DNA from: a virus
Lineage: Duplodnaviria > Heunggongvirae > Uroviricota > Caudoviricetes
Virus record (IMG/VR): IMGVR_UViG_2667527839_000010
Length of the DNA stretch: 14,104 bases
Strand: one strand, 5' to 3'
The notes below the pieces were generated by a model that saw only the letters and a list, made by a program, of their open reading frames with translations, was not told where the DNA came from and did not search any database. Positions 2,045-13,116 of this stretch are shown one piece after another (the stretch's first letter is position 1; every line of letters starts with the position of its first letter). The translations under genes and the position numbers were made by a program.

Positions 2045-2307
2045 TGAATCGTTAAAATGCAATAATACCTTTTGACATATGATTTTTTGATTTTCCATCC
2101 TATCCATATGAATTCTATTGATTTTATTTTTTTTGTGCATTTCCTTCTCTCCGTGTTCTTTCATATGAATATTACTTCTTTTTTCAGTGGAGATTATTGT
2201 TTTTCAATAGAATCAATATTTGTCTTAATAGATTCCATTATCACTAGAATCACTTTTTCCCAGTGTTTAAAGTCACCGTGAACTTAAGTAGAACACGGAG
2301 TAACAAG

Positions 2308-2538
2308 ATGGAATATGCAAACAGCTTTTCAGATAATCAGACTCTTATCTCAGCAAAAGAGGTCTTAAGACGCGTTCAGCGTAGCAAGGCATGGCTTTAC
2401 AAACAGCTTGCAAACAATACATTTCCCCGTCCGGTGAAAATAGGAACTCGTGCAATTTCATTTGTTGAAAGCGAAGTTGATCACTGGATTCAAGAGCAAA
2501 TATATGCCTCTCGTGGTGAGCGATATGAAAATCACTAA
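2308..2538 (+). CDS. alpA: AlpA/Vis-family small DNA-binding regulator (excisionase-like), 76 aa
   Basis: MEYANSFSDNQTLISAKEVLRRVQRSKAWLYKQLANNTFPRPVKIGTRAISFVESEVDHWIQEQI matches the AlpA/Vis HTH pattern. ATG 2308 preceded by ACGGAG (2295-2300). The ORF track start at 2263 lacks an RBS and lies in AT-rich promoter DNA. Confidence 0.8.
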   Translation: MEYANSFSDNQTLISAKEVLRRVQRSKAWLYKQLANNTFPRPVKIGTRAISFVESEVDHWIQEQIYASRGERYENH

Positions 2539-2543
2539 TAAAA

Positions 2544-2571
2544 AAGCCCGACATAATGAATTTGTGGGCTT
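2544..2571. terminator. Hairpin between convergent alpA and the RHH gene, flanked by A/T runs
   Basis: aagccc (2544-2549) pairs with gggctt (2566-2571), with partial extension; the A-run at 2538-2543 reads as a T-run on the minus strand, so it most plausibly terminates the minus-strand RHH transcript. Confidence 0.4.
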
Positions 2572-2634
2572 AAAAATATTGTCGCTTACTGAAATTAACA
2601 TGGAAACAGAGAGAACGTCTGTTGGCTTCTCTAT

Positions 2635-2820
2635 TCAACTTCCTTGCTCTGGCTTATTTTTCCTGCGCTGTCGGCGTTTAATCTCGCCTTTTACAGCCGT
2701 AACAATGAATTGCGCTTTCGTTTCTCCATCTTCAAGGTTGCTTTCTAATTCTGCAACTACATCATGTGGGAAACGAGCATTAAGTTGCTGCGACTTGTTG
2801 TTAGTTGAACTCGTTGCCAT
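2635..2820 (-). CDS. Small ribbon-helix-helix (Arc/MetJ/CopG-like) DNA-binding protein, 61 aa
   Basis: MATSSTNNKSQQLNARFPHDVVAELESNLEDGETKAQFIVTAVKGEIKRRQRRKNK: short beta-strand (LNARFPHDVV) followed by two helices, basic tail. Strong SD on minus strand (AGGAG, 8 nt before ATG at 2820). Confidence 0.55.
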   Translation of the reverse strand: MATSSTNNKSQQLNARFPHDVVAELESNLEDGETKAQFIVTAVKGEIKRRQRRKNKPEQGS

Positions 2821-2841
2821 TACTGGATCTCCTCGCGTTAG

Positions 2842-2931
2842 GTGCGATTCAGTATATGCAAAAAAAATGATAATAAAAAGCTTGAAGTGCGATTCACTTA
2901 AGGGTAGCTTTAAAATTAAAGGTGCGATTCA
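2842..2931 (+). promoter_or_regulatory. Three direct repeats of GTGCGATTCA in the divergent promoter region (putative operator/iteron)
   Basis: GTGCGATTCA at 2842-2851, 2887-2896 and 2922-2931 (extended consensus aGGTGCGATTCAc), 22-110 bp upstream of the RHH start and upstream of the early operon. Confidence 0.5.
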
Positions 2932-3007
2932 CCTTGTGAGTGCGAAGCCCGACAGTGCAGCAACACTAACCGGGCTTCTGACCAATCCGCTAAATGAGGT
3001 AACGAAG

Positions 3008-3184
3008 ATGGCTAAACAGAAGTGTACCTGGTTATTTGCGGCGATCAACCGCAGTCAACGCAATGCCCGTCCTGTGATGTTAAGGATCACCGCAGATAAC
3101 GAGCGGTCAGCGCGGCGCAGACTTGCCCCGGACTATGTACTGAGCTTTGCCGGGCGCATTCCCTGCGGAGGTGAACATGCGTAA
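3008..3184 (+). CDS. Possible small leader ORF (58 aa) of the early operon
   Basis: ATG 3008 with GAGG at 2996-2999; its stop (TAA 3182-3184) overlaps the next start (ATG 3177), suggesting coupling. This is the only credible part of ORF-track 2450-3184, which is otherwise antisense to the RHH gene. No motif recognised. Confidence 0.3.
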   Translation: MAKQKCTWLFAAINRSQRNARPVMLRITADNERSARRRLAPDYVLSFAGRIPCGGEHA

Positions 3185-3536
3185 TTATCCGCACCCCGGC
3201 GAACGCTGGCAGCATGAACGTGGCTGGACGGTCACGATTATCCGATTAATAGAAGCCTCGCCCTCTGTGGCGCTGGTTAATCCTGAATTCAGCTGTGAAG
3301 TGCTGATACGTCATGACAGCGACAACCAGCTTTCTTCCTGCCCTCTGGCATGGTTTGAACAGCGGTATACGCGCCTGTTTGATGTACCGCTCTTGAAGCC
3401 TGCACCAGCTCCTGCTGGCGGTAGTGGTTCCGGCCCGCTGACACTGCATCCGTCTGTGCTATTTATCCGCTGGCGGGAGCGTAGCATACGGCGTTCTGCT
3501 GAGCCTGACGACGGTCACTATTCAAAGTTTCTCTGA
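3177..3536 (+). CDS. Hypothetical protein (119 aa), early operon
   Basis: ATG 3177 preceded by GGAGGTG (3167-3173). The track start at 3147 is a TTG without RBS. No family assigned. Confidence 0.6.
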   Translation: MRNYPHPGERWQHERGWTVTIIRLIEASPSVALVNPEFSCEVLIRHDSDNQLSSCPLAWFEQRYTRLFDVPLLKPAPAPAGGSGSGPLTLHPSVLFIRWRERSIRRSAEPDDGHYSKFL

Positions 3537-3567
3537 CAAAATACCGCTGAAAACGGAGTAATCCACG

Positions 3568-3852
3568 ATGAATATTTCAAACGGGCACAACGGTGCTCAG
3601 GGCCACACTTTGCCTGAAAAACACAATACCGGTGCTTTTGCCTATGGGTTGTCAGAGGACAGTTTCGGAAAACTGACCCGCGCAAGAAATGCCTGCGACA
3701 TGCTCCAGCTTCTCTTTTCTGAATACCCGTCTCAGGCCGGAGCACTGGACGCTGGCTGTGCGCATGGTGTCGCCGCGCTGATGGAGTACCTGCTGGCAGA
3801 TTTGACGGATATTGCACACAGCTGCGCACTGATTGAAGGAGGTGCCAGATGA
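3568..3852 (+). CDS. Hypothetical protein (94 aa), early operon
   Basis: ATG 3568 with GGAG at 3555-3558; stop overlaps the next start (ATGA at 3849-3852). Confidence 0.65.
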   Translation: MNISNGHNGAQGHTLPEKHNTGAFAYGLSEDSFGKLTRARNACDMLQLLFSEYPSQAGALDAGCAHGVAALMEYLLADLTDIAHSCALIEGGAR

Positions 3853-4232
3853 ACCAGCCGCAGGTTTCCATTTTCCCGGCAGAAATGACCACCGCGCTTT
3901 ACCGGCGGGCTATTGCTTCAGCATGGCGGCAGAAAATGCTGAACGAAACTGGCAGTGATCAGTATGGTCCTCACAGCCTGACGGTGGAGCGTATTGAAAT
4001 GGCCATTGCGCTGCATATCGAGTGCGTACTGATTAACGAGTACGGCGAAGCACAGGGCGCCGCTGCCGCGCTGGCACTGCTGACTGACATGCTGGAGCCG
4101 TCACTGCTGACCGCGCCGCCGGTACTGACCGCGCGCGGCTGTGAAGTGATGGCGGAGATGTACCGCACGCTTCCGGCGGCCTTTGATGACTTCTGCAGTA
4201 CCGGTGTGACGTTGTATCAGGGGGAAGTATGA
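3849..4232 (+). CDS. Hypothetical protein (127 aa), early operon immediately upstream of the primase
   Basis: ATG 3849 preceded by AGGAGG; stop overlaps the primase start (ATGA at 4229-4232). Confidence 0.65.
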   Translation: MNQPQVSIFPAEMTTALYRRAIASAWRQKMLNETGSDQYGPHSLTVERIEMAIALHIECVLINEYGEAQGAAAALALLTDMLEPSLLTAPPVLTARGCEVMAEMYRTLPAAFDDFCSTGVTLYQGEV

Positions 4233-6901
4233 CAATACAGACGGTTACGCAGATTTCAGCTGCCGCACGGGGGAAATGGCCCGTTATTCTCCAGATGCTG
4301 CGTATTGATGTACCTGAAAACGGCAGGCACGGTCCCTGCCCGAAATGTGGGGGCAAGGATCGTTTTCGCCTTGATGACCTTGACGGGCGCGGGACGTGGA
4401 TCTGCAGCCAGTGTGGCAATGGTGACGGTCTGGATCTGGTTAAGCTCGTAACCGGTTACAGCGTCAGAAAGGCTGCGCAGGAGGTGGCGCAGGTGCTTAA
4501 TGTGCCGGATGTGCAGGAACTGCCTGTTAAGCCTGCCAGACAAAAAGCCCCTAAACGCGACATGGGGCTTACCGTGGCGGCGCTGATGAAAGAGAGCCAC
4601 ACGGGAGAAAGCGCCTATCTGACAGGAAAAGGGTTCGCCGGATACCCGGCCTCTCTGACCGGAAGCGTGCAGCATATCAGCGGTAAGGATTTTCCTGCCG
4701 GTTCCCTGCTGTTACCACTCACGACCAACACCGGAGCCGTGACTGGTGCACAGCTTATCGCCCCGACGGGTGAAAAAAGCATACTGCCCGGCAGCACGAT
4801 GAAAGGCGCGTTTGTGTCGCTCAGCCCGTTACCGTCTGAACCACCGGTACAGGTGGTGATTACCGAAGGTTACGCTACGGCGCTGACGGTAAGTCAGCTC
4901 ACTGCCGGATGCGTAGTGGCTGCCATATCTGCGGGCAACCTGCCCAATGTGGCGCAGTCGCTGCGGGCACGCTGGCCTGAGGTAAAAATTATCATCGCCG
5001 GTGATAACGATTTTCAGGACGGAGGTGAGAATCCCGGCAGAGCCTTTGCTGAACGGGCGGCAAAAGCTGTTGGCGGCTGGATGACGCTGCCACCGGGAGA
5101 GATTAAGGCCGACTGGAATGACTTCCATCGGGAGCACGGTATTACCCGCGCCCGTGAAGCCTTTCGTAACGGTCTGGTGCTGTGCGGGGAGGGCCGCACG
5201 CAACTGCCGCACGGGTTCCGTCTTACCCAGGAATATCTCTGGTATGAAAAGCAGGTACAGCGCAACGGTGAGACGGAGATCCAGAACGTCAAAATATGCA
5301 GCCCGCTGCGCGTGACGGCAATCACCTGCGATGCCGATGGCGGTAACTTCGGACGACTGCTGGAATGGGAAGATACGTGGGGTGAGTGTCGCCGCTGGGC
5401 GATGCCGATGGAAATGCTGAGCGGCAGTGGTGAGGAACTGCGCCGGGTACTGCTGGTTAACGGGCTGTCTTATATCAGCACCACCGGTGAGGCACGCGCA
5501 CGCCTGATGGAATATATCTCACTGTGTAAACCGGAACGCCGCGTGACCTGCGTCAGTCGTACTGGCTGGCATGGTCAGGTTTACGTCCTGCAGGATGAGG
5601 TCAGCGGTGAAGGTGCAGAGGGTGTCATTCTCCAGACCACTTCCGTGCAGGGGCGTGATTTCCGCGTGTCGGGCACAACAGAGGAATGGCGGGAGCATGT
5701 ATCCCGCTACTGTACCGGCAACTCCCGCGTGGCATTTGCTGTCAGCCTGGCCTTTGCTGCACCACTGTTACGGCTGGTTGGTATGGACGGCGGCGGCTAC
5801 CACCTCAAAGGGGAATCGACAGACGGTAAGACCACCACCATGAAAGCAGCAACCTCCGTCTGCGGCGGGCCTGACTACTGGCAGACATGGCGGGCCACCG
5901 GCAACGCGCTGGAGGGATGCGCCAGCCGCCGCAACGATGCCGCCATGATGCTTGATGAGATCCGGGAAGTTGACGGACGCGAGGCAGGCAATATCGCCTA
6001 CATGCTGGCAAACGGTCAGGGCAAGGGCCGTGCCGGTACGGACGGTGAGCTGCGTACCCGTAAGCAGTGGCGCCTGTTGTTCTTTTCAACTGGCGAGTTG
6101 TCTCTGACCGAACATGCGGCAAAGGCCGGTGAGCGTACTTTTGCCGGGATGGAAGTCAGGATGATCCAGATCCCCAGCGATTCCGGGAAGTTTGGCGTTT
6201 TTGAGGAGCTGCACGGCTTCGACAGCGGCAAGGCTCTGGCAGAGCATCTTGAATGGGCCACGTCCTGCTACTACGGTTCGCCGTTCCGGGAGTGGCTGAA
6301 AGCACTGACCGCTGATCTTAACGGACTAACGGCACAGGCAAAATCGCTGATGAAGGAATATGCTGCCGCCCTGACTCCGAAAGATGCAGGCAATCAGGTG
6401 GGCCGGGCTGTGAACCGCTTTGCTCTGGTGGCGATGGCAGGTGAACTGGCAACCCGTCTGGGTATCACCGGCTGGCCTGAGGGTGAAGCACTGCGGGCAA
6501 CCCGCGTCTGCCTGAACGCATGGCTGAAAGATCGCGGGCACACCGCCAATCAGGAAGATATCGCCGCACTGGAGCAGGTTCGCAGTTTCTTTACCGCGAA
6601 TCAGTACAGCCGCTTTGCAGACTGGTATGACGAGCGCAACCGCCCCGGCAATATGGTGGGCTGGCGCAGGGTGGAGAAAGGCAGTACCGCGCAGGGCACG
6701 GAAGCTGTCACTACGTTCTATGTCATGCCGTCCGGCTGGAAAGAAATCTGCAGGGGATTTGACCCGCGCAAGGTGGCGCGTCTGTGCGCAGATCGTGGAT
6801 ACCTGCTGCCCTCCACTGATGGCAAACTCCAGACAACCATTCGCCCGCCAGAGATGAATCCCCGCAGGCTCTATGTCTTCAACAGCGAGGTGCCGGGTTA
6901 A
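4229..6901 (+). CDS. Replication primase-helicase, P4 alpha-like (zinc ribbon + TOPRIM + Walker A/B NTPase), 890 aa
   Basis: N-terminal CPKCGGKDRF...WICSQCG (CxxC..CxxC); TOPRIM-like VVITEGYATALTV and IIIAGDNDFQDGG; Walker A HLKGESTDGKTTTM and Walker B-like MMLDEIREV. Uniform coding-like composition over 2.7 kb; internal antisense ORFs are shadows. Confidence 0.9.
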   Translation: MTIQTVTQISAAARGKWPVILQMLRIDVPENGRHGPCPKCGGKDRFRLDDLDGRGTWICSQCGNGDGLDLVKLVTGYSVRKAAQEVAQVLNVPDVQELPVKPARQKAPKRDMGLTVAALMKESHTGESAYLTGKGFAGYPASLTGSVQHISGKDFPAGSLLLPLTTNTGAVTGAQLIAPTGEKSILPGSTMKGAFVSLSPLPSEPPVQVVITEGYATALTVSQLTAGCVVAAISAGNLPNVAQSLRARWPEVKIIIAGDNDFQDGGENPGRAFAERAAKAVGGWMTLPPGEIKADWNDFHREHGITRAREAFRNGLVLCGEGRTQLPHGFRLTQEYLWYEKQVQRNGETEIQNVKICSPLRVTAITCDADGGNFGRLLEWEDTWGECRRWAMPMEMLSGSGEELRRVLLVNGLSYISTTGEARARLMEYISLCKPERRVTCVSRTGWHGQVYVLQDEVSGEGAEGVILQTTSVQGRDFRVSGTTEEWREHVSRYCTGNSRVAFAVSLAFAAPLLRLVGMDGGGYHLKGESTDGKTTTMKAATSVCGGPDYWQTWRATGNALEGCASRRNDAAMMLDEIREVDGREAGNIAYMLANGQGKGRAGTDGELRTRKQWRLLFFSTGELSLTEHAAKAGERTFAGMEVRMIQIPSDSGKFGVFEELHGFDSGKALAEHLEWATSCYYGSPFREWLKALTADLNGLTAQAKSLMKEYAAALTPKDAGNQVGRAVNRFALVAMAGELATRLGITGWPEGEALRATRVCLNAWLKDRGHTANQEDIAALEQVRSFFTANQYSRFADWYDERNRPGNMVGWRRVEKGSTAQGTEAVTTFYVMPSGWKEICRGFDPRKVARLCADRGYLLPSTDGKLQTTIRPPEMNPRRLYVFNSEVPG

Positions 6902-6933
6902 GGCTTTGCGTGAGTCTTATTTATTAAGGGTAA

Positions 6934-7123
6934 CAGGTGAAACAGGTGGAACAACCGTATTTTACAGGGCTGAACCTGTTCCACCTTCTGAAATAGTGAG
7001 GTGGAACAGATGTAACGCCAGCCAATCCGCTGTTCCACCTTGTTACCCGCGATGTTCCACCGGTGCAGTGTATATAAATGCCTTATAAAACAAAGCTGTA
7101 ACACATGTTTCATCTGTTCCACC
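6934..7123. repeat. Iteron cluster: six perfect copies of TGTTCCACC in both orientations (putative ori/crr for the primase-helicase)
   Basis: TGTTCCACC at 6977-6985, 7031-7039, 7053-7061, 7115-7123; its complement GGTGGAACA at 6945-6953 and 7000-7008; degenerate copies at 6934-6944 and 7041-7048. Lies immediately 3' of the primase gene. Confidence 0.6.
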
Positions 7124-7211
7124 GCATCAGGGACATAAAGCAGACTGAAACAGAGGGCATTTTTATCTGGCTGGCTTTCATAGCCACGTCTGAATAACCG
7201 CAAGCGTCCGT

Positions 7212-7267
7212 TGTGCCAGCCACCACACACTGAGCACCGGTAGTGTGCTTGTGTCAGCCACGACACA
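7212..7267 (+). promoter_or_regulatory. Two tandem TGT-N12-ACA dyads upstream of the late operon (Ogr/Delta-type activator site candidates)
   Basis: TGT(7212-7214)-N12-ACA(7227-7229) and TGT(7250-7252)-N12-ACA(7265-7267), within 20-bp direct repeats ttgtgCcagccacCacacaC / ttgtgTcagccacGacacaA (17/20 identical), 35-90 bp upstream of the Sid-like start. Confidence 0.4.
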
Positions 7268-7301
7268 ATTGACGTAACGAACTAACCCGACAGGAGAAGT
7301 C

Positions 7302-8045
7302 ATGAACAACACCGCAGTGAATAACAACCTTTCCACTTTTCCGGCTGTAACGCAGCGGGCACTGGAAACCATGAACACAGCCAGAAACGCATGGCTTGAA
7401 GCACGTCGTCAGCAGAAAGCGGCAGCGGATAATATTGCGACAATCCGCCAGCGTCGCGCTGAAATGGAAGCCACGACGAACACACTGAATGAGGAGTGGC
7501 GCACGCTGTTTCGTGAAAGTCAGGGCGTGGTCTCAAAGGAAATGAAAAAACTGCGCACGGAAATTGCGCTGGGACGAGAAACGCTTGAGGATTTTGATGA
7601 GCTGCTGGCGGCTCAGGAAAGCGAAAATGCACTTTTGCCGCAGAAAGCTGCAGAATTAGCCGGAAAGTATATCCACGCGCATAACATTCTTGTGGATATT
7701 CGCGCAAAACAAATCTGGGAGGATTTTATGCAGTCGCATGGAAAAGCGCTTATTCAGACGCTGAGCCTGCTTAAATCCACAATGGGCCGGGAAGCCAGTG
7801 CCGTTGTGGGTGTGGTGAATTCAGTTAATGACCCGGACACAGTGCTGAAAGACTTTATTCATAAACATATCACCAGACCGGCTCTGGCTAACGATGCGAT
7901 GCCTGAGCAGGACCCGGTGTTTAAACTGGCGGGAGTTGCCCCGGATTATGCGGCGCGTCTGGATTTCAGTAATCAACTCTCTCCGGCAGCTATGCATAAA
8001 ATTAAGGTTCGTCAGGAACTTGCTGAGAAGGAGAAAGCAGTATGA
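7302..8045 (+). CDS. sid: Sid-like (P4 external scaffold / size-determination family), 247 aa
   Basis: ATG 7302 with AGGAG at 7292-7296. Size close to P4 Sid; shares N-terminal and central motifs with the Psu-like gene that follows (NAWLEARRQQKAA..., EDFMQSHGKALIQTL), consistent with the Sid/Psu paralogy. Family assignment is from remembered motifs and context, not alignment. Confidence 0.55.
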   Translation: MNNTAVNNNLSTFPAVTQRALETMNTARNAWLEARRQQKAAADNIATIRQRRAEMEATTNTLNEEWRTLFRESQGVVSKEMKKLRTEIALGRETLEDFDELLAAQESENALLPQKAAELAGKYIHAHNILVDIRAKQIWEDFMQSHGKALIQTLSLLKSTMGREASAVVGVVNSVNDPDTVLKDFIHKHITRPALANDAMPEQDPVFKLAGVAPDYAARLDFSNQLSPAAMHKIKVRQELAEKEKAV

Positions 8046-8593
8046 CGGCCCGAGGCACGCCTGACCAGGCACTTACCAGTTTTCGGAATGCCCGTATTCT
8101 GTGGGCCGGACATAATGAGAGCCGAAAAGCCATTGAACAACAGATAACATCTCTCCTCGCTGCCACAGAAAAACCAGCAGATTATGCCCGACAGCTCGAA
8201 TTACTGCGGGAACGTCTGGATGTGCTGAAATGGCAAATTAACTGTGCTGCGCGCGAATGCATTTACTCGCAGCATTTACTGATGGAGGCCTGCACAGAAG
8301 CCGCTCTCAGCAATTTTATGCAGGCGAATGGGGCAGCCCTGACATCTGCACTGGCTCCGTTCCTGAAGGGGCGCGGAGGGGTTGACGTTGCGTCCCGTAT
8401 ATTACGCAGTGCTCTGGTTCGCCAGCTGGCAATAACACCGCCTGAAATTGCCGGGGATTATCGTGAGATCCTGGATGAATCCGGTTTGATGCCTGACCCC
8501 GGGATGATTCGTGATTGCCAGGGTTCTTACACCCCGGCACAACATCTGCGTTTTCAGCAACGCCTGAATGACATTAACGATATACAGGAGTGA
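8042..8593 (+). CDS. psu: Psu-like (polarity suppression / capsid decoration family), 183 aa
   Basis: Start overlaps the Sid-like stop (ATGA at 8042-8045). Motifs LELLRERLDVLKWQINCAARECIYS, FMQANGAALTSALAP and YTPAQHLRFQQR resemble P4 Psu as I recall it. Confidence 0.6.
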   Translation: MTARGTPDQALTSFRNARILWAGHNESRKAIEQQITSLLAATEKPADYARQLELLRERLDVLKWQINCAARECIYSQHLLMEACTEAALSNFMQANGAALTSALAPFLKGRGGVDVASRILRSALVRQLAITPPEIAGDYREILDESGLMPDPGMIRDCQGSYTPAQHLRFQQRLNDINDIQE

Positions 8594-8598
8594 TATTA

Positions 8599-8871
8599 AT
8601 GGCACTTAAATGTCCGGAATGCGGTACAGTTGCACACGCCAGAACAGCAGCCTATGAAGCTCCGTCAGTTAAACGCTCGTGGTATCAGTGCCAGAATCTG
8701 GAATGTTCCTGCACATTTACGGCACTGGAGAGTGTGGATAAGATAATCATGAAACCCCGGCGCAATGAACAGCTATCAGACAAAGCACAATCCCCGGAAA
8801 AACAACAGAAAACGCTCAATCGCTATGGCTCCGCGTCAAAACTGTCAAGCCGTCAGCAGATTCCTGTCTGA
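8599..8871 (+). CDS. ogr: Ogr/Delta-family zinc-finger late transcription activator, 90 aa
   Basis: MALKCPECGTVAHARTAAYEAPSVKRSWYQCQNLECSCTF has the CxxC-N22-CxxC arrangement and HART/YQCQN signature of P2 Ogr / P4 Delta. ATG 8599 with AGGAG (8586-8590); the track GTG at 8590 overlaps the Psu-like stop. Confidence 0.85.
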   Translation: MALKCPECGTVAHARTAAYEAPSVKRSWYQCQNLECSCTFTALESVDKIIMKPRRNEQLSDKAQSPEKQQKTLNRYGSASKLSSRQQIPV

Positions 8872-8890
8872 TTAGAAAGAACGCCCACGT

Positions 8891-8917
8891 AATCCCGGTC
8901 CAGTACCGGGATTTTTT
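8891..8917 (+). terminator. Rho-independent terminator of the late operon
   Basis: Perfect 9-bp stem aatcccggt (8891-8899) / accgggatt (8905-8913), 5-nt loop, followed by TTTT (8914-8917), 20 bp after the ogr stop. Confidence 0.6.
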
Positions 8918-9072
8918 ACCCCCTTTTCCTGGCTGACATGAGAGCGCATGAGTGCATGTCTATGGCGCATGAAAACGCATGAGTCTTATGCACCATTTTT
9001 GACGAGAAAACCCTTGTGTGCTGGCTTCTGAGACGATTAATGAGGTGCATGAAAACCAGTCTGTTAAGCGAA

Positions 9073-9100
9073 GCGGGCAGGCGTGCGGGGCTGCCCGCAC
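9073..9100. other. GC-rich palindromic element, possible cos-like site
   Basis: gcgggcag(9073-9080)-N10-ctgcccgc(9091-9098); the core ggcgtgcgggg resembles the start of P2/186 cohesive ends as I recall them, and it sits where P4 carries cos (after the late operon). Confidence 0.25.
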
Positions 9101-9278
9101 TAACGGTGATAATTGTGATGTTGCGATATCAAGAGAGATATAAGAATGCTGTATTCAATAAGGTATTGCTTTCAATTGTTAGATTTATTTTTGTTTAAAT
9201 GTCAATGGTTTAGGTGGTTGCTGGCAGCCAGTACGCTTACTTATTGAAAATCTCGCATCTTTTGCTATCCTAACCCTA

Positions 9279-9479
9279 CCTTTACGCGCGGGATAACAGG
9301 TTTATCCTTGTCGGGCGTTTCGCCAGACACTAATTTATTGTGGACATTTAGGGTTGCGCTTTAGCACTTTCAGCAAGATCCTTCATGCCACTGCGTTCCA
9401 TTCAGGATCTTGCTGAAAGTCTAAAGCGCATCCTTTAGGTAAAGGGGTCGAAGGTGGCTGGTTAGCCACCTTTTCTTTT
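9279..9479 (+). ncRNA. Candidate retron msr-msd non-coding RNA (boundaries tentative)
   Basis: Structured leader upstream of the effector-RT operon. Possible promoter: TTGAAA (9244-9249), 16 bp, TGcTATCCT (9263-9271). Short hairpins ggataa-caggt-ttatcc (9291-9307) and gggcg-ttt-cgcc. Long hairpin with arms 9356-9382 and 9404-9429 (26/27 bp complementary, one bulge, 21-nt loop) as candidate msd. Possible short a1/a2 pair cctttac (9279-9285) / gtaaagg (9439-9445), only 7 bp. No covariance model was run. Confidence 0.4.
9453..9479 (+). terminator. Intrinsic-terminator-like hairpin between the ncRNA region and the effector gene (possible attenuator)
   Basis: 7-bp stem ggtggct (9453-9459) / agccacc (9464-9470), 4-nt loop, then TTTTCTTTT (9471-9479); the effector SD (GGAG 9481-9484) and start (9499) follow directly. 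Confidence 0.5.
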
Positions 9480-9498
9480 GGAGTAGGGGGTCACAAGG

Positions 9499-10485
9499 GT
9501 GAGTGATTCTGCATATATGAATGCATTACAAGAGCAGTTTGGAGATTTGAAATATTCAAATTTCACTGTTCAGTTCATGCCTCCTATTATTTTTGTTTGT
9601 GGTGGGCCGATAAATTCCACTCCAATGAGTGTACGAGACCACATATTTACTTATGTAGCAGGCCACAAACCTGAATTGTCAGATTCTCTTATTTTAGCTG
9701 AGAACTTCCATGACTACTTCAGAGAGGGGGCATATTCAGATCTAATGAGCTTTGAAGATGATATTGCAAATATTTCAACATTAGTTGTTATCTGTTTAGA
9801 AAGTGCAGGTTCGTTAGTTGAGCTTGGATTATTTGTTAATAGGAAGTCTCTAGCTCAAAAATTGCATGTAGTCGCACCATTTGAGGAGATTGAGGGAAAT
9901 GAACGAAAAAATATTCCTGCTAGATCTTCTTTTATATATTTAGGCCCTTTGGAGTATCTTAAAAAAATAGATGAGGCCTCAGTATCAGTTTATCCATGGC
10001 CAAAATCGGATCGTATGAAATATGATGAGGTTGAGCTTATCTACCATGATATTCATTCTAGATTAAAACGTGTAAAAAAAACGGAGCGATATAACCCTGA
10101 AAATACTGGGCACCTAGCTATATTGATTTACGAAATAATCCTTTTATCAGAACCAATCAAGAAAAGCGAAATAGAGTGGGCACTATACTGTATGGATATA
10201 GATGTGCCACAAAAAATAATATCTCGTTTACTTTATTTGCTTGAAAAGATGAAATTAACCTCATCATTATCTTACAGTGGTACAGACTACTTTTATTCCC
10301 GAGGGCATAGAGAGAGTAAACTTAAATTTGGTATCAGTGCTAGTGGTAAAATAAAGGATTCTATGAATATTAAGGTTGCAATCCGACAATCTTACTTAAG
10401 TATGGATGCTAAAGATATGGACGAGACTGCAAAAAAAAGGAAAAATGCTCTAAATCAAATCAATATCGTGCGTGGAGGGGCTTAG
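9499..10485 (+). CDS. Retron effector: nucleoside 2-deoxyribosyltransferase-like (NDT-like) domain protein with a C-terminal putative DNA-binding region, 328 aa
   Basis: N-terminal PIIFVCGGP and STLVVICLESAGSLVELGLFV fit the NDT fold (Rossmann-like strand, then a conserved Glu in a VELG context); C-terminal half is a separate, helix-rich region. GTG start at 9499 with GGAG/AGGGGG upstream; alternative ATG at 9517. Stop TAG 10483-10485 abuts the RT start. Confidence 0.8.
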   Translation: MSDSAYMNALQEQFGDLKYSNFTVQFMPPIIFVCGGPINSTPMSVRDHIFTYVAGHKPELSDSLILAENFHDYFREGAYSDLMSFEDDIANISTLVVICLESAGSLVELGLFVNRKSLAQKLHVVAPFEEIEGNERKNIPARSSFIYLGPLEYLKKIDEASVSVYPWPKSDRMKYDEVELIYHDIHSRLKRVKKTERYNPENTGHLAILIYEIILLSEPIKKSEIEWALYCMDIDVPQKIISRLLYLLEKMKLTSSLSYSGTDYFYSRGHRESKLKFGISASGKIKDSMNIKVAIRQSYLSMDAKDMDETAKKRKNALNQINIVRGGA

Positions 10486-10486
10486 A

Positions 10487-11419
10487 ATGGAGTTGCTAAG
10501 TTATATTTCAAAAGGTCTTTTTCTTAGCGAAGAAGAGGCTAAAAGGTATATTGTTACTATTCCACGCAGATATAAAATTTATCCTATCGCCAAAAGAAAT
10601 GGTAATGGATATAGATTAATTGCACAACCAGCTAGGCAAGTTAAAGCCTTACAGAAGGTAGTAATCAATCATATGTTGGCTAATTTGAAAGTTCATGAAA
10701 ATGCTTTCGCTTATGAAGCCGATAAAAGTATTAGATCTAATGCGTTAATGCATTGTAATAATGATTATTTGCTTAAAATGGATTTTAAAAACTTTTTTAT
10801 GAGTATCAAACCCCATAATCTTTTATCTGTCTTAAAAGATTATGGCGTTGAACTAACTGATACTGATATCTTTGTTCTTAAAAATCTTTTCTTCTGGAAG
10901 TTAAGAAGAAATAGCCCATTACGCCTAAGTGTTGGAGCACCTTCTTCTCCCATTATTTCAAATGCAGTAATGTATTTCTTCGATGAGGAAATATCGAAAA
11001 GATGCAAGGATTTGGATATTACCTACTCAAGGTATGCTGATGATCTTACGTTTAGCACCAAAGTCAAAGGAGCTTTATTTGATGTTCCTAAGTTAGTAAG
11101 GGAAGTTCTTAACGTAGTAAATCTTAGGAATATTAAAATAAACCATGAGAAAACAGTTTTTACCTCAAGGAAGTTTAATAGACATGTAACTGGTGTAACT
11201 ATTACGACTGATGGTTATTTGTCTTTAGGTCGTGATAGAAAGCGTCTTTTAAGAAGTAAAATACATTATTACGTGTGTGGGGTTTTATCTGAGAAAGAAA
11301 TTCTAACCCTTAAAGGAGAATTAGGCTATGCGAAATTTATTGAACATAAATTCTTTACCTCCATGATTAAGAAATATGGGGATGATGTAATCAGCGAAAT
11401 TTCAAAATATGAAATTTAA
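10487..11419 (+). CDS. ret: Retron-type reverse transcriptase, 310 aa from ATG 10487 (315 aa if GTG 10472)
   Basis: Retron RT motifs: YRLIAQPARQVKALQKVV; LLKMDFKNFFMSI (cf. DxxxFFPSI); SVGAPSSPIISNAVMYFFD (cf. QGAPTSP); YSRYADDLTFS (YADD); NHEKT; VTGVTIT (retron-specific VTG). GGAGG at 10474-10478 precedes ATG 10487. AT-rich composition matches the effector gene. Confidence 0.9.
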   Translation: MELLSYISKGLFLSEEEAKRYIVTIPRRYKIYPIAKRNGNGYRLIAQPARQVKALQKVVINHMLANLKVHENAFAYEADKSIRSNALMHCNNDYLLKMDFKNFFMSIKPHNLLSVLKDYGVELTDTDIFVLKNLFFWKLRRNSPLRLSVGAPSSPIISNAVMYFFDEEISKRCKDLDITYSRYADDLTFSTKVKGALFDVPKLVREVLNVVNLRNIKINHEKTVFTSRKFNRHVTGVTITTDGYLSLGRDRKRLLRSKIHYYVCGVLSEKEILTLKGELGYAKFIEHKFFTSMIKKYGDDVISEISKYEI

Positions 11420-11664
11420 TAGCTTGTTGTCCTAATAAATCAGCATGACTTTATCTAGCTTGCGCAAGGTTGGTTCAGAGGTTTGGTTGTTCTGGTTAGG
11501 CTCTGTAAGACGGAACCTAACTAGGCAACTCTATCTTGCTAATTCATTTATTGTGCTAGTTAGCAACAATAAGATTTTGTTGGGGGCACAAAATGGGGCA
11601 CAAGTCATAAGCTATAAAATTTTTATCATCATGTTCAATGAGTTATATAGTTATTCTATTCCGG

Positions 11665-11696
11665 CCTTCGCACCTTCGCACCTTCGCACCTTCGCA
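11665..11696. repeat. Perfect tandem repeat (CCTTCGCA)x4 within a tRNA-Leu 3'-end-like sequence (putative degenerate attR)
   Basis: ccttcgca at 11665-11672, 11673-11680, 11681-11688, 11689-11696, preceded by ttctattccgg and followed by ccatcgg. The context TTCtAtTCCGGCCTTCG-CACC...A resembles the 3' end of E. coli tRNA-Leu(CAA) leuX (..TTCGAGTCCGGCCTTCGGCACCA) as I remember it. Confidence 0.85.
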
Positions 11697-11712
11697 CCAT
11701 CGGAACATCAAT

Positions 11713-11735
11713 AGACGTCAACGGACGTTTTTTTT
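11713..11735 (+). terminator. Short hairpin plus T8 run downstream of the retron/att region
   Basis: acgtc (11715-11719) / gacgt (11724-11728), 4-nt loop, then 8 T (11728-11735). The stem is short, so confidence is moderate. Confidence 0.4.
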
Positions 11736-11901
11736 ATGACTGAAATCCGCGCCACACAAGGCTTTTCGCTATTTTTCGCTCAACCTAAGTCAACCTACAT
11801 CAACTTACTGATGTGGATACAGCTACAGCTGCGGCTATATCCCGATTCGATAATGTTTGTACCCACACAAAACCCTTGAAAGGCTACAAGGCTGAAATTG
11901 T

Positions 11902-12152: not shown

Positions 12153-12386
12153 TCAAACTGCATCCTCGTAGACTGTTCCACTACAATAATCGAAAAGGCG
12201 CGGATGTCCATTCAGGTATCCCGCTAATACGTATAGCAATAACAATGGTTTATGCGGTGCGCGCTGTTCACCCTTATGCCAGATTTTTATATTGGCAATT
12301 GCCTGCTGTAGCGATTTACTGGAAGCCATTGATATCCCTGGCAGTGAAATAATTGCGATCATGCTCGCAAATTTTCTGCTGTTCAA
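12153..12386 (-). CDS. Hypothetical small protein (77 aa), hydrophobic N-terminus
   Basis: Open frame only; overlapped on the + strand by an implausible 81-aa ORF (12107-12352); could be a gene remnant. Confidence 0.25.
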   Translation of the reverse strand: MNSRKFASMIAIISLPGISMASSKSLQQAIANIKIWHKGEQRAPHKPLLLLYVLAGYLNGHPRLFDYCSGTVYEDAV

Positions 12387-12465: not shown

Positions 12466-13116
12466 ATGAATAAACTCCCCGATCATCTTCCTCGGCGGTA
12501 TATCATCAAAGCTATTCATTTATGGGATGCGGGAGAAACTCATCAGTTCCAGCCTGCACGGTTGTATGAGATTGAATATCATGGCCGACGTTACCCCTCG
12601 AAGGCGATTGCTGGTATCGCAGCGACATTGATGACGGGGACGCAATTTACCCCTGCGGATTTCACCGGCGGAATAAAATCTAAATGCGTCAAGCTACTTA
12701 TAGATCAGGGATTTCATATTCATCAGGATAAAGCCGCTGCGGCTCCCATAGCCGATGTTCTGTTCCCGGATGAGTTGCCGTCGCAGGGGACCTACGTTGA
12801 AGGTGCGGCGATAAAGGTGACGGTAAACCGCTATGAACGCGATAAAAAAGCTCGCGAGAAAGCAGTCGAACATCACGGATGCCAGTGCAACGTATGCGGC
12901 GTTGATCTGGTGAAGATCTATGGCGATATCGCTGAGGGTTTTATCCATATGCATCACCTGGTGCCGCTTTCAGCCATTAAAGAGGATTACCAGCTGGATC
13001 CAGTTAATGATTTACTTCCTGTGTGCCCTAATTGCCATGCGATGCTGCACCGGCGCAAACCACCGTTTACGCCGGAGGAGTTAAAAGCGCTGATGGATGC
13101 GAATAAATCAAATTAA
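12466..13116 (+). CDS. HNH endonuclease family protein (McrA-like C-terminal HNH nuclease with an N-terminal putative DNA-recognition domain), 216 aa
   Basis: C-terminal CQCNVCGVDL...FIHMHHLVPLS...DPVNDLLPVCPNCHAML matches the HNH zinc-finger nuclease motif. ATG 12466 with AAGGA (12453-12457). Confidence 0.8.
   Translation: MNKLPDHLPRRYIIKAIHLWDAGETHQFQPARLYEIEYHGRRYPSKAIAGIAATLMTGTQFTPADFTGGIKSKCVKLLIDQGFHIHQDKAAAAPIADVLFPDELPSQGTYVEGAAIKVTVNRYERDKKAREKAVEHHGCQCNVCGVDLVKIYGDIAEGFIHMHHLVPLSAIKEDYQLDPVNDLLPVCPNCHAMLHRRKPPFTPEELKALMDANKSN

Follow-up and report, generated by a model that had tools for sequence, protein, structure and literature searches.

The DNA analysed here is a stretch of 14,104 nucleotides (the window; IMG/VR virus record IMGVR_UViG_2667527839_000010) that begins at the ATG of an integrase gene and carries a P4-like satellite prophage, with all genes of the element from the integrase (int) to a reverse transcriptase (RT) on the + strand. 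We study the segment of low G+C content (GC) at the right end of this element, positions 9107-11560, which lies between a cos-like packaging region and a copy of the 3' end of a tRNA-Leu gene. This segment is very probably a complete type II-A (St85/Sen2/Eco9-like) retron, held as accessory cargo in a cos-adjacent variable slot of a satellite integrated at leuX. The features of the segment and its borders are the following.

8891-8919, + strand: intrinsic terminator of the late operon, with a 9-bp G+C-rich stem, a 5-nt loop and a U-run, after the delta stop codon at 8871
8920-9106, no strand assigned: cos-like packaging region with GCATGA repeats, aligning to the psu-cos-gop junction of P4 and the RE2010 and MLG42 cos regions
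about 9076-9100, no strand assigned: cos-like core, GGCAGGCGTGCGGGGCTGCCCGCAC
9244-9271, + strand: putative sigma-70-like retron promoter from a consensus scan (TTGAAA, 16-nt spacer, TGnTATCCT)
9273-9448, + strand: msr-msd non-coding RNA (ncRNA), from Rfam msr and STnc400 matches and the minimum free energy (MFE) fold
Parts of the msr-msd from the fold, + strand: a2, 9273-9285; putative branching G, 9286; msr hairpins, 9290-9329; msd hairpin, 9350-9435; a1, 9439-9448
9499-10485, + strand: retron effector, NDT-like, RcaT/St85 family (NCBIfam NF038232, 223.7 bits, cutoff 100; PADLOC NDT_II-A, 291 bits)
10487-11419, + strand: retron reverse transcriptase (Pfam RVT_1; NCBIfam NF038233 retron_St85_RT, 334 bits, cutoff 235; PADLOC RT_II-A, 401 bits)
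11581-11603, no strand assigned: P4-type integrase arm-binding repeats, the P arm of attP/attR (TGGGGGCACAAAATGGGGCA, against TGGGGGCACAAAAGGGGGCA in P4, at similar spacing from the core)
11660-11699, no strand assigned: attR core, a copy of the tRNA-Leu 3' end that matches the 20-bp P4 attP core

The low-GC block and its borders

The cargo at 9107-11560 has a GC of 0.353, against 0.551 in the backbone at 2800-9106, and codon usage divides in the same place: the G+C content at third codon positions (GC3) is 0.28 in the effector gene and 0.25 in the RT gene, compared with 0.50-0.64 for sid, psu and the primase gene. A first-pass annotation made from the letters of the window had described a sharp drop in GC at the retron genes and had proposed profiling of GC and codon usage as a check on its reading of them as exchangeable cargo. 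The drop is there in both measures, but it is stepwise rather than razor-sharp, with the structured msr-msd segment (9273-9449) at an intermediate 0.475.

Both protein families are assigned through NCBIfam equivalog or exception models passed above their curated cutoffs. The RT also matches retron RTs in the PDB (Eco1 RT: E 6.5e-30), and its translation contains YADD, NAxxH and VTG, the motifs that mark retron RTs. The effector, for which an alternative ATG start exists at 9517, matches the Ec86 effector structure 7v9x_C weakly (E 2.6e-6) and keeps the ES.GS..ELG motif. Upstream, the RNA at 9266-9480 folds with an MFE of -90.6 kcal/mol (z -8.9) into the canonical retron shape of a2/a1 pairing, two msr hairpins and a long msd hairpin, and a further hairpin (9450-9473) stands after a1 and ahead of the effector gene. 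For the promoter the evidence is weak, promoter-like matches being no commoner in the window than in shuffled sequence, but its placement directly upstream of a2 fits. The block thus combines the features that define type II-A, the St85 family (Mestre et al., 2020): an RT of the retron clade, an NDT-like effector encoded between msr-msd and RT, and an msr-msd ncRNA. Judged from its sequence, it is predicted to be an intact and complete type II-A (St85/Sen2-family) retron, comprising promoter, msr-msd, NDT-like effector and RT.

On the left, the retron is separated from the late operon by a terminator and the cos-like region. The terminator folds at -13.8 kcal/mol (z -2.3) and is conserved in two sister satellites, L003 and L004; a simple consensus scan for terminators missed it, and folding revealed it. 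Beyond it, the cos block carries a flanking motif, GTGCATGAAAACC, that is identical to the one in the cos regions of RE2010, MLG42 and P4, while the core is related to theirs and not identical. In the P2-family phages RE2010 and vB_YpM_MLG42, gene A/dinI borders the same block on one side and, in RE2010, cargo and portal genes border it on the other. Ec86 (Retron-Eco1) adjoins cos in a 186/P2-like prophage, which is not a satellite. Upstream of the window core, at 8937-9056, stand direct repeats containing GCATGA (CATGAGAGCGCATGAGT, CATGAAAACGCATGAGT and GG(C/T)GCATGAAAAC); repeats of this type are conserved in the cos regions of P4 and the P2 family, and may be binding sites of terminase or an accessory factor. 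An open reading frame (ORF) at 9016-9198 overlaps the cos block and was treated as spurious. The cos block is also the last segment common to the sister satellites, since megablast matches to relatives stop at 9091-9106 and homology to the sisters ceases at about 9100, just beyond the cos core.

On the right, the arm repeats at 11581-11603 are also kept in L003 and L004, and the attR core reads TCCGGCCTTCG-CACC(TTCGCACC)x3-A, in agreement with the tRNA-Leu 3' end (…GAGTCCGGCCTTCGGCACCA). The leftmost 11 nt of the core, TCCGGCCTTCG, are unbroken in attR. Another ORF, at 11445-11714, overlaps the attR arm and core and was likewise treated as spurious. The partner of this junction lies outside the window: integration is at tRNA-Leu (leuX), which is the P4 attachment site, and in the record NZ_CP088131 a distance of 164 bp separates the end of the tRNA-Leu gene from the int start codon downstream of it. 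The tRNA gene and attL lie about 165-250 bp left of window position 1, and ARAGORN finds no tRNA inside the window.

With these borders in place, the first-pass placement of the retron between the late operon or cos-like region and an attR-like end, bounded by a terminator on the left and a tRNA-like repeat on the right, agrees with what we find, and the span that it gave, 8872-11700, is apt. One could still picture the retron in a separate island, inserted beside the satellite and hence outside it; an independent insertion of this kind could likewise show itself by low GC and a sudden end of homology at about 9100. On the right of the retron, however, come the P4-type arm repeats and the tRNA-derived core, and there is neither a second integrase nor a pair of direct repeats around it; no second att-like repeat pair or transposase flanking the retron alone was found in the window. 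In sister satellites, moreover, it is precisely this interval from cos to attR that the alternative cargo occupies, and we find a separate island barely credible. The retron has the satellite's cos-like site on one side and attR on the other, is foreign in composition and is replaced by other gene sets in close relatives.

Other cargoes in the slot and known systems

To see how the slot varies we use the late operon and the retron as separate markers in 5426 complete E. coli genomes searched by megablast. DNA of the sid-psu-delta-cos segment is present in 851 of these genomes and retron DNA in 156, each time in a single copy. Eight relatives were sampled for their cargo, and between the same flanks they hold seven other cargoes; three of these satellites are also at leuX.

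L003, near vat: IetA/IetS
L004, leuX, with the same right flank as the window: PDC-M38 A/B
L005, in O157:H7: ABC-three-component system
L006, tRNA-Thr: another II-A retron (RT 44% and effector 35% identical) with an 8xMP/RipA membrane protein
L009 and L010, tRNA-Arg: genes of unknown function
L011, leuX: P2-type portal gene and a small ORF
L012, leuX, in the canonical P4 layout: SIR2 and ATPase

When L003 and L004 are aligned to the window, identity runs through cos, gives way to unrelated sequence in which the arm repeats are kept, and resumes from the attR core. The late operons of sisters with other cargo in the slot are 92-98% identical to that of the window, and the alternative cargoes are mostly defence-related. 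In L011, the cos-adjacent slot (9389-10810, - strand) holds a Pfam Phage_portal gene of 351 residues and a 120-residue ORF; this looks like the result of recombination at cos involving a satellite and a P2-family helper.

These data bear directly on whether the retron might instead be a stable, lineage-defining part of the backbone of this satellite type. A variant of the whole element, about 94% identical (strains N9 and AMSCJX03), has the same retron at 93.9%, a sign that backbone and retron have co-diverged for some time. Against this stand the occurrence of the retron in far fewer genomes than the late operon, the unrelated genes that relatives with 97-98% identical late operons hold between the same flanks, and the GC of 0.35 against 0.55, so that a fixed backbone retron is highly improbable. 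The comparison supports reading the retron as probable exchangeable cargo of a cos-adjacent hotspot, as the first-pass annotation had proposed. The comparison that it suggested, with P4-like prophages at the same tRNA, gives conserved flanks with different cargo, including the three other leuX satellites; relatives do not all carry this retron, and the retron does not fall outside attL and attR. Its statement that such hotspots hold diverse defence systems is borne out both by the relatives sampled here and by published work.

In that work, the defence hotspot of P4 is described as adjoining cos, between psu and int, with content that varies between satellites (Rousset et al., 2022, Cell Host Microbe, PMC9122126). 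Table S1B of the same study lists system #8, RVT_1, as a 'type-II retron' with 141 loci, and its Table S1A lists WP_001185344, WP_060618050 and WP_060618051, of which the first and last are the accessions of delta and RT in NZ_CP088131. The effector and RT of system #8 differ from those of the window by only a few residues, and system #8 occupies the same place, adjoining delta/psu and cos; the window thus carries an allele of system #8. The slot at the attR end in this satellite type is not discussed by Rousset et al. Carriage of a retron by a P4-like satellite goes back further, to the retronphage phiR73 of 1991, a P4-like satellite at a tRNA gene with P2-dependent transfer (reviewed by Simon, 2019, PMC6868368; also cited in Rousset et al., 2022). 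Compared by description, phiR73 is at selC and carries a different retron, retron-Eco3 (Ec73).

Among characterised retrons, the closest in arrangement are Retron-Sen2 (St85) and Retron-Eco9, for which a tripartite toxin/antitoxin mechanism has been described (Bobonis et al., 2020, bioRxiv 10.1101/2020.06.22.160168). They share with the window the operon order msr-msd, effector (RcaT family), RT, the likeness being at the level of the St85-family models; Sen2, unlike the window retron, sits in an old prophage remnant and not in a P4-like hotspot (PMC6868368). Retron-Eco1 (Ec86; 7v9x, 8qbk) is likewise of type II-A, with an effector of the NDT-like fold family and the ES.GS..ELG motif, at distant sequence similarity.

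Both the hotspot principle and this specific retron system are therefore already known (Rousset et al., 2022; phiR73, 1991), and, with principle and system published, the locus opens no new question. It is a clean, well-delimited case of a defence system carried in a cos-adjacent satellite hotspot, and it has value for annotation: the type II-A retron is intact, its ncRNA is defined, and work on defence or on retron-based editing could make use of it. Only two points are mildly fresh: the rearranged satellite map, which places the slot opposite int at the attR end, and the degenerate attR that satellites share, both taken up below.

The satellite backbone and its gene order

Outside the cargo, the element consists of an integrase module, an early region and a late operon, all co-directional.

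1-1263, + strand: P4-type tyrosine integrase, int (Pfam Arm-DNA-bind_3, Phage_int_M, Phage_integrase; 72% identity to P4 Int)
1293-1931, + strand: ORF212, low GC (0.31), next to int, in a possible second variable slot (match to PHROG 30524, function unknown)
2263-6901, + strand: early region (Pfam; PGAP annotation of NZ_CP088131)
2263-2538, + strand: AlpA/Vis-like regulator, alpA (Pfam Phage_AlpA, 44 bits)
early region after alpA, + strand: small ORFs including an Icd-like one (Pfam/PGAP)
3849-4232, + strand: DUF5375 (Pfam)
4229-6901, + strand: primase with Zn-ribbon, Toprim and DUF927 (Pfam/PGAP)
7302-8871, + strand: late operon sid-psu-delta (Pfam, PHROG, comparison with P4 proteins)
7302-8045, + strand: sid-like gene (PHROG 6165; P4 Sid match, E 1e-12, 24% identity)
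8042-8593, + strand: psu (Pfam Psu, 152 bits; 30% identity to P4 Psu)
8590-8871, + strand: delta/ogr, a single unit (Pfam Ogr_Delta, 57.8 bits; 45% identity to P4 Delta)

The core set of P4-like satellites is int, alpA, alpha, epsilon, sid, delta and psu (de Sousa and Rocha, 2021), and the window has int with a tRNA-directed attP, alpA, sid, psu, delta and a cos of P2-family type, while epsilon is the member not found. The N-terminal Zn-ribbon and Toprim part of the primase has 38% identity to P4 alpha, and its C-terminal DUF927 part cannot be aligned with the helicase part of P4 alpha. On gene content we class the element as a P4-like satellite prophage of E. coli at leuX, but one distant from P4, because Sid, Psu and Delta are only 24-45% identical to their P4 counterparts, the C-terminus of the primase differs and no epsilon homologue was found. 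Two small conserved ORFs at 3568-3852 and 3177-3536 (PHROG 14861 and 30862, function unknown) sit where P4 has epsilon and orf151; neither is epsilon-like, and this subfamily may have a non-homologous epsilon analogue. A megablast search of the whole window against a phage collection from which phiR73 and its close relatives are absent gives only a 95-bp match in the flank, and a distant-mode search of the late operon against that collection gives no match.

The genes occur in the order attL-int-ORF212-alpA...alpha-sid-psu-delta-cos-[cargo]-attR, with early and late operons co-directional, whereas the P4 prophage has the order attL-int-[cII, beta, gop]-cos-psu-delta-sid, followed by a divergent alpA...alpha-attR. 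The P4 order, or a psu/delta swap of it, is found in 97% of elements (de Sousa and Rocha, 2021). An order of the window type is not described among the organisational variants in that survey, but is common in the E. coli genomes sampled: it recurs in L003, L004, L006 and L009-L011, and the same type of late operon occurs in the canonical layout in L005 and L012. The recurring layout defines a common satellite subfamily, with a DUF927 primase.

The consequences for the slot are easiest to follow on the circular map, where the cargo lies between delta/psu and int with attP in between (delta-cos-cargo-attP-int). Because attP falls between cargo and int, the cargo of the integrated prophage adjoins attR, at the end opposite int. 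The two elements (P4 is NC_001609) agree in the leuX site, in the 72% identical Int and in an attP made of arm repeats and a tRNA core. They differ in that P4 has its late operon divergent from the early one, the order delta-psu where the window has psu-delta, a Delta of 166 residues where the window has 93, the alpha helicase C-terminus where the window has DUF927, and epsilon, for which no counterpart was detected in the window. The first-pass annotation had placed gop, beta and cII of P4 at the position of the retron. This is right insofar as these accessory, non-essential genes lie directly beyond cos and downstream of the late operon, as the retron does; the far limit of the slot differs, being the 3' end of int in P4 and the attP P arm here, with cos as the other limit in both.

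A second low-GC island (1293-1931, and 1932-2262) follows directly after int; it is another variable slot or else belongs to an exchangeable int module. Where the window has ORF212, sisters whose integrases differ have ORFs of 180, 274 or 293 residues that are unrelated to it; Pfam, NCBIfam and PADLOC give no match for ORF212 (1293-1931), and we rejected it as a homologue of P4 cII, to which it has no similarity.

Mobility and the leuX junction

If the retron behaves as its Sen2 and Eco9 homologues do, a single promoter would drive msr-msd, effector and RT, and the RT would copy the msd hairpin into multicopy single-stranded DNA (msDNA), priming at the branching G at 9286. The RT-msDNA complex would then keep the NDT-like toxin inactive until a phage that disturbs the msDNA frees it, whereupon the infection would abort and the lysogen population, with its resident satellite, would be protected. 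By analogy to P4 and phiR73, a P2-family helper would supply late functions, and the satellite would excise via Int and AlpA, replicate through its own primase and be packaged from cos with the retron aboard. Co-mobilisation of retron and satellite by a P2-like helper, which the first-pass annotation had also proposed, is what we would infer from this biology. Near-identical backbones (late operons 97-98% identical) occur at leuX, thrW and argW with different integrases, and the presence of one backbone at three tRNA sites points to recent mobility of the satellite family.

Several results weigh against a complete retron in a mobile P4-like satellite. Both ncRNA matches fall below the Rfam gathering scores, with 42.2 bits (E 1e-4; gathering score 52) for msr at 9278-9344 and 55.4 bits (E 2e-8; gathering score 80) at 9349-9485 for STnc400, a gammaproteobacterial small-RNA family that we take to cover the msd region of Salmonella St85. 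No epsilon homologue was detected, as BLASTP finds no likeness between P4 epsilon and the 94-residue ORF at the equivalent position (3568-3852). The cos core is not that of P2, P4 or 186; blastn of 8920-9110 finds nothing beyond P2-family cos regions, matched at about 70% identity, and no phage that shares the core, and an exact 19-mer of the core finds five IMG/VR contigs, the two examined of which have the gene layout of sister satellites and no phage genes. The attR core is imperfect relative to attL, with one G deleted (1 nt) and an 8-bp unit repeated four times. Lastly, 154 of the 156 retron copies are at least 99% identical and look largely clonal, many coming from related clinical isolates, so that they do not demonstrate recent horizontal spread of this combination of satellite and retron.

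Most of these observations would also follow if the satellite were a fixed, immobile remnant and the retron a defence gene of the chromosome, passed down vertically within a single E. coli lineage. Clonal descent accounts for the near-identical, single-copy retrons; a decayed element could lack epsilon and have a degenerate attR core; no helper with a matching cos core was found; the degenerate junction is common to unrelated leuX satellites; and decay is ongoing in some carriers. The window is 100% identical to the record of E. coli strain 81 (NZ_CP088131) except for an 870-bp deletion of the primase in that record. On the other side, the core ORFs int, alpA, primase, sid, psu and delta are all intact in the window, attR preserves the 11 nt at the left of its core, TCCGGCCTTCG, and late operons of 97-98% identity are spread over leuX, thrW and argW with different integrases. 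We regard an immobile remnant as rather unlikely, and prefer the reading of the retron as cargo of a satellite in a family that has moved recently. The deletion in strain 81 appears to be in frame (window 4229-6901 against L001 8229-10031), and the window primase is full length, at 890 residues.

The junction itself gives some indication of how leuX satellites succeed one another. The octamer CCTTCGCA/TTCGCACC of the attR core occurs in four copies in the window and in three in both L004 (about 12250-12290) and L012 (about 1770-1812, - strand), and these three quite different satellites, L012 having the canonical P4 layout, share the degenerate attR junction together with the right flank. The sequence to the right of the attR core is identical in L004 and L012, both of which hold other satellites. 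Since the same degenerate junction accompanies three different satellites, the octamer repeat belongs to the resident chromosomal junction, and the sharing hints that satellites at leuX have been replaced in situ. A wider conjecture joins the rearranged map, the shared degenerate attR with its variable octamer and the portal-carrying sister: cargo, or whole satellites, would be replaced in situ through the exchange of cassettes, anchored at cos or att, with satellites or helper phages that come in, rather than through excision and re-integration, and the copy number of the octamer might modulate excision. We consider this conjecture distinctly improbable.

A hairpin at 11713-11738, right of attR, resembles a terminator and is possibly the original one of leuX. 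Beyond it stand the remnants of an older island, namely a 61-residue ORF, a fragment annotated as a phosphorothioated-DNA-binding restriction endonuclease and, at 12466-13116, an intact HNH endonuclease with weak matches to the PADLOC type IV mREase models; nanS comes next.

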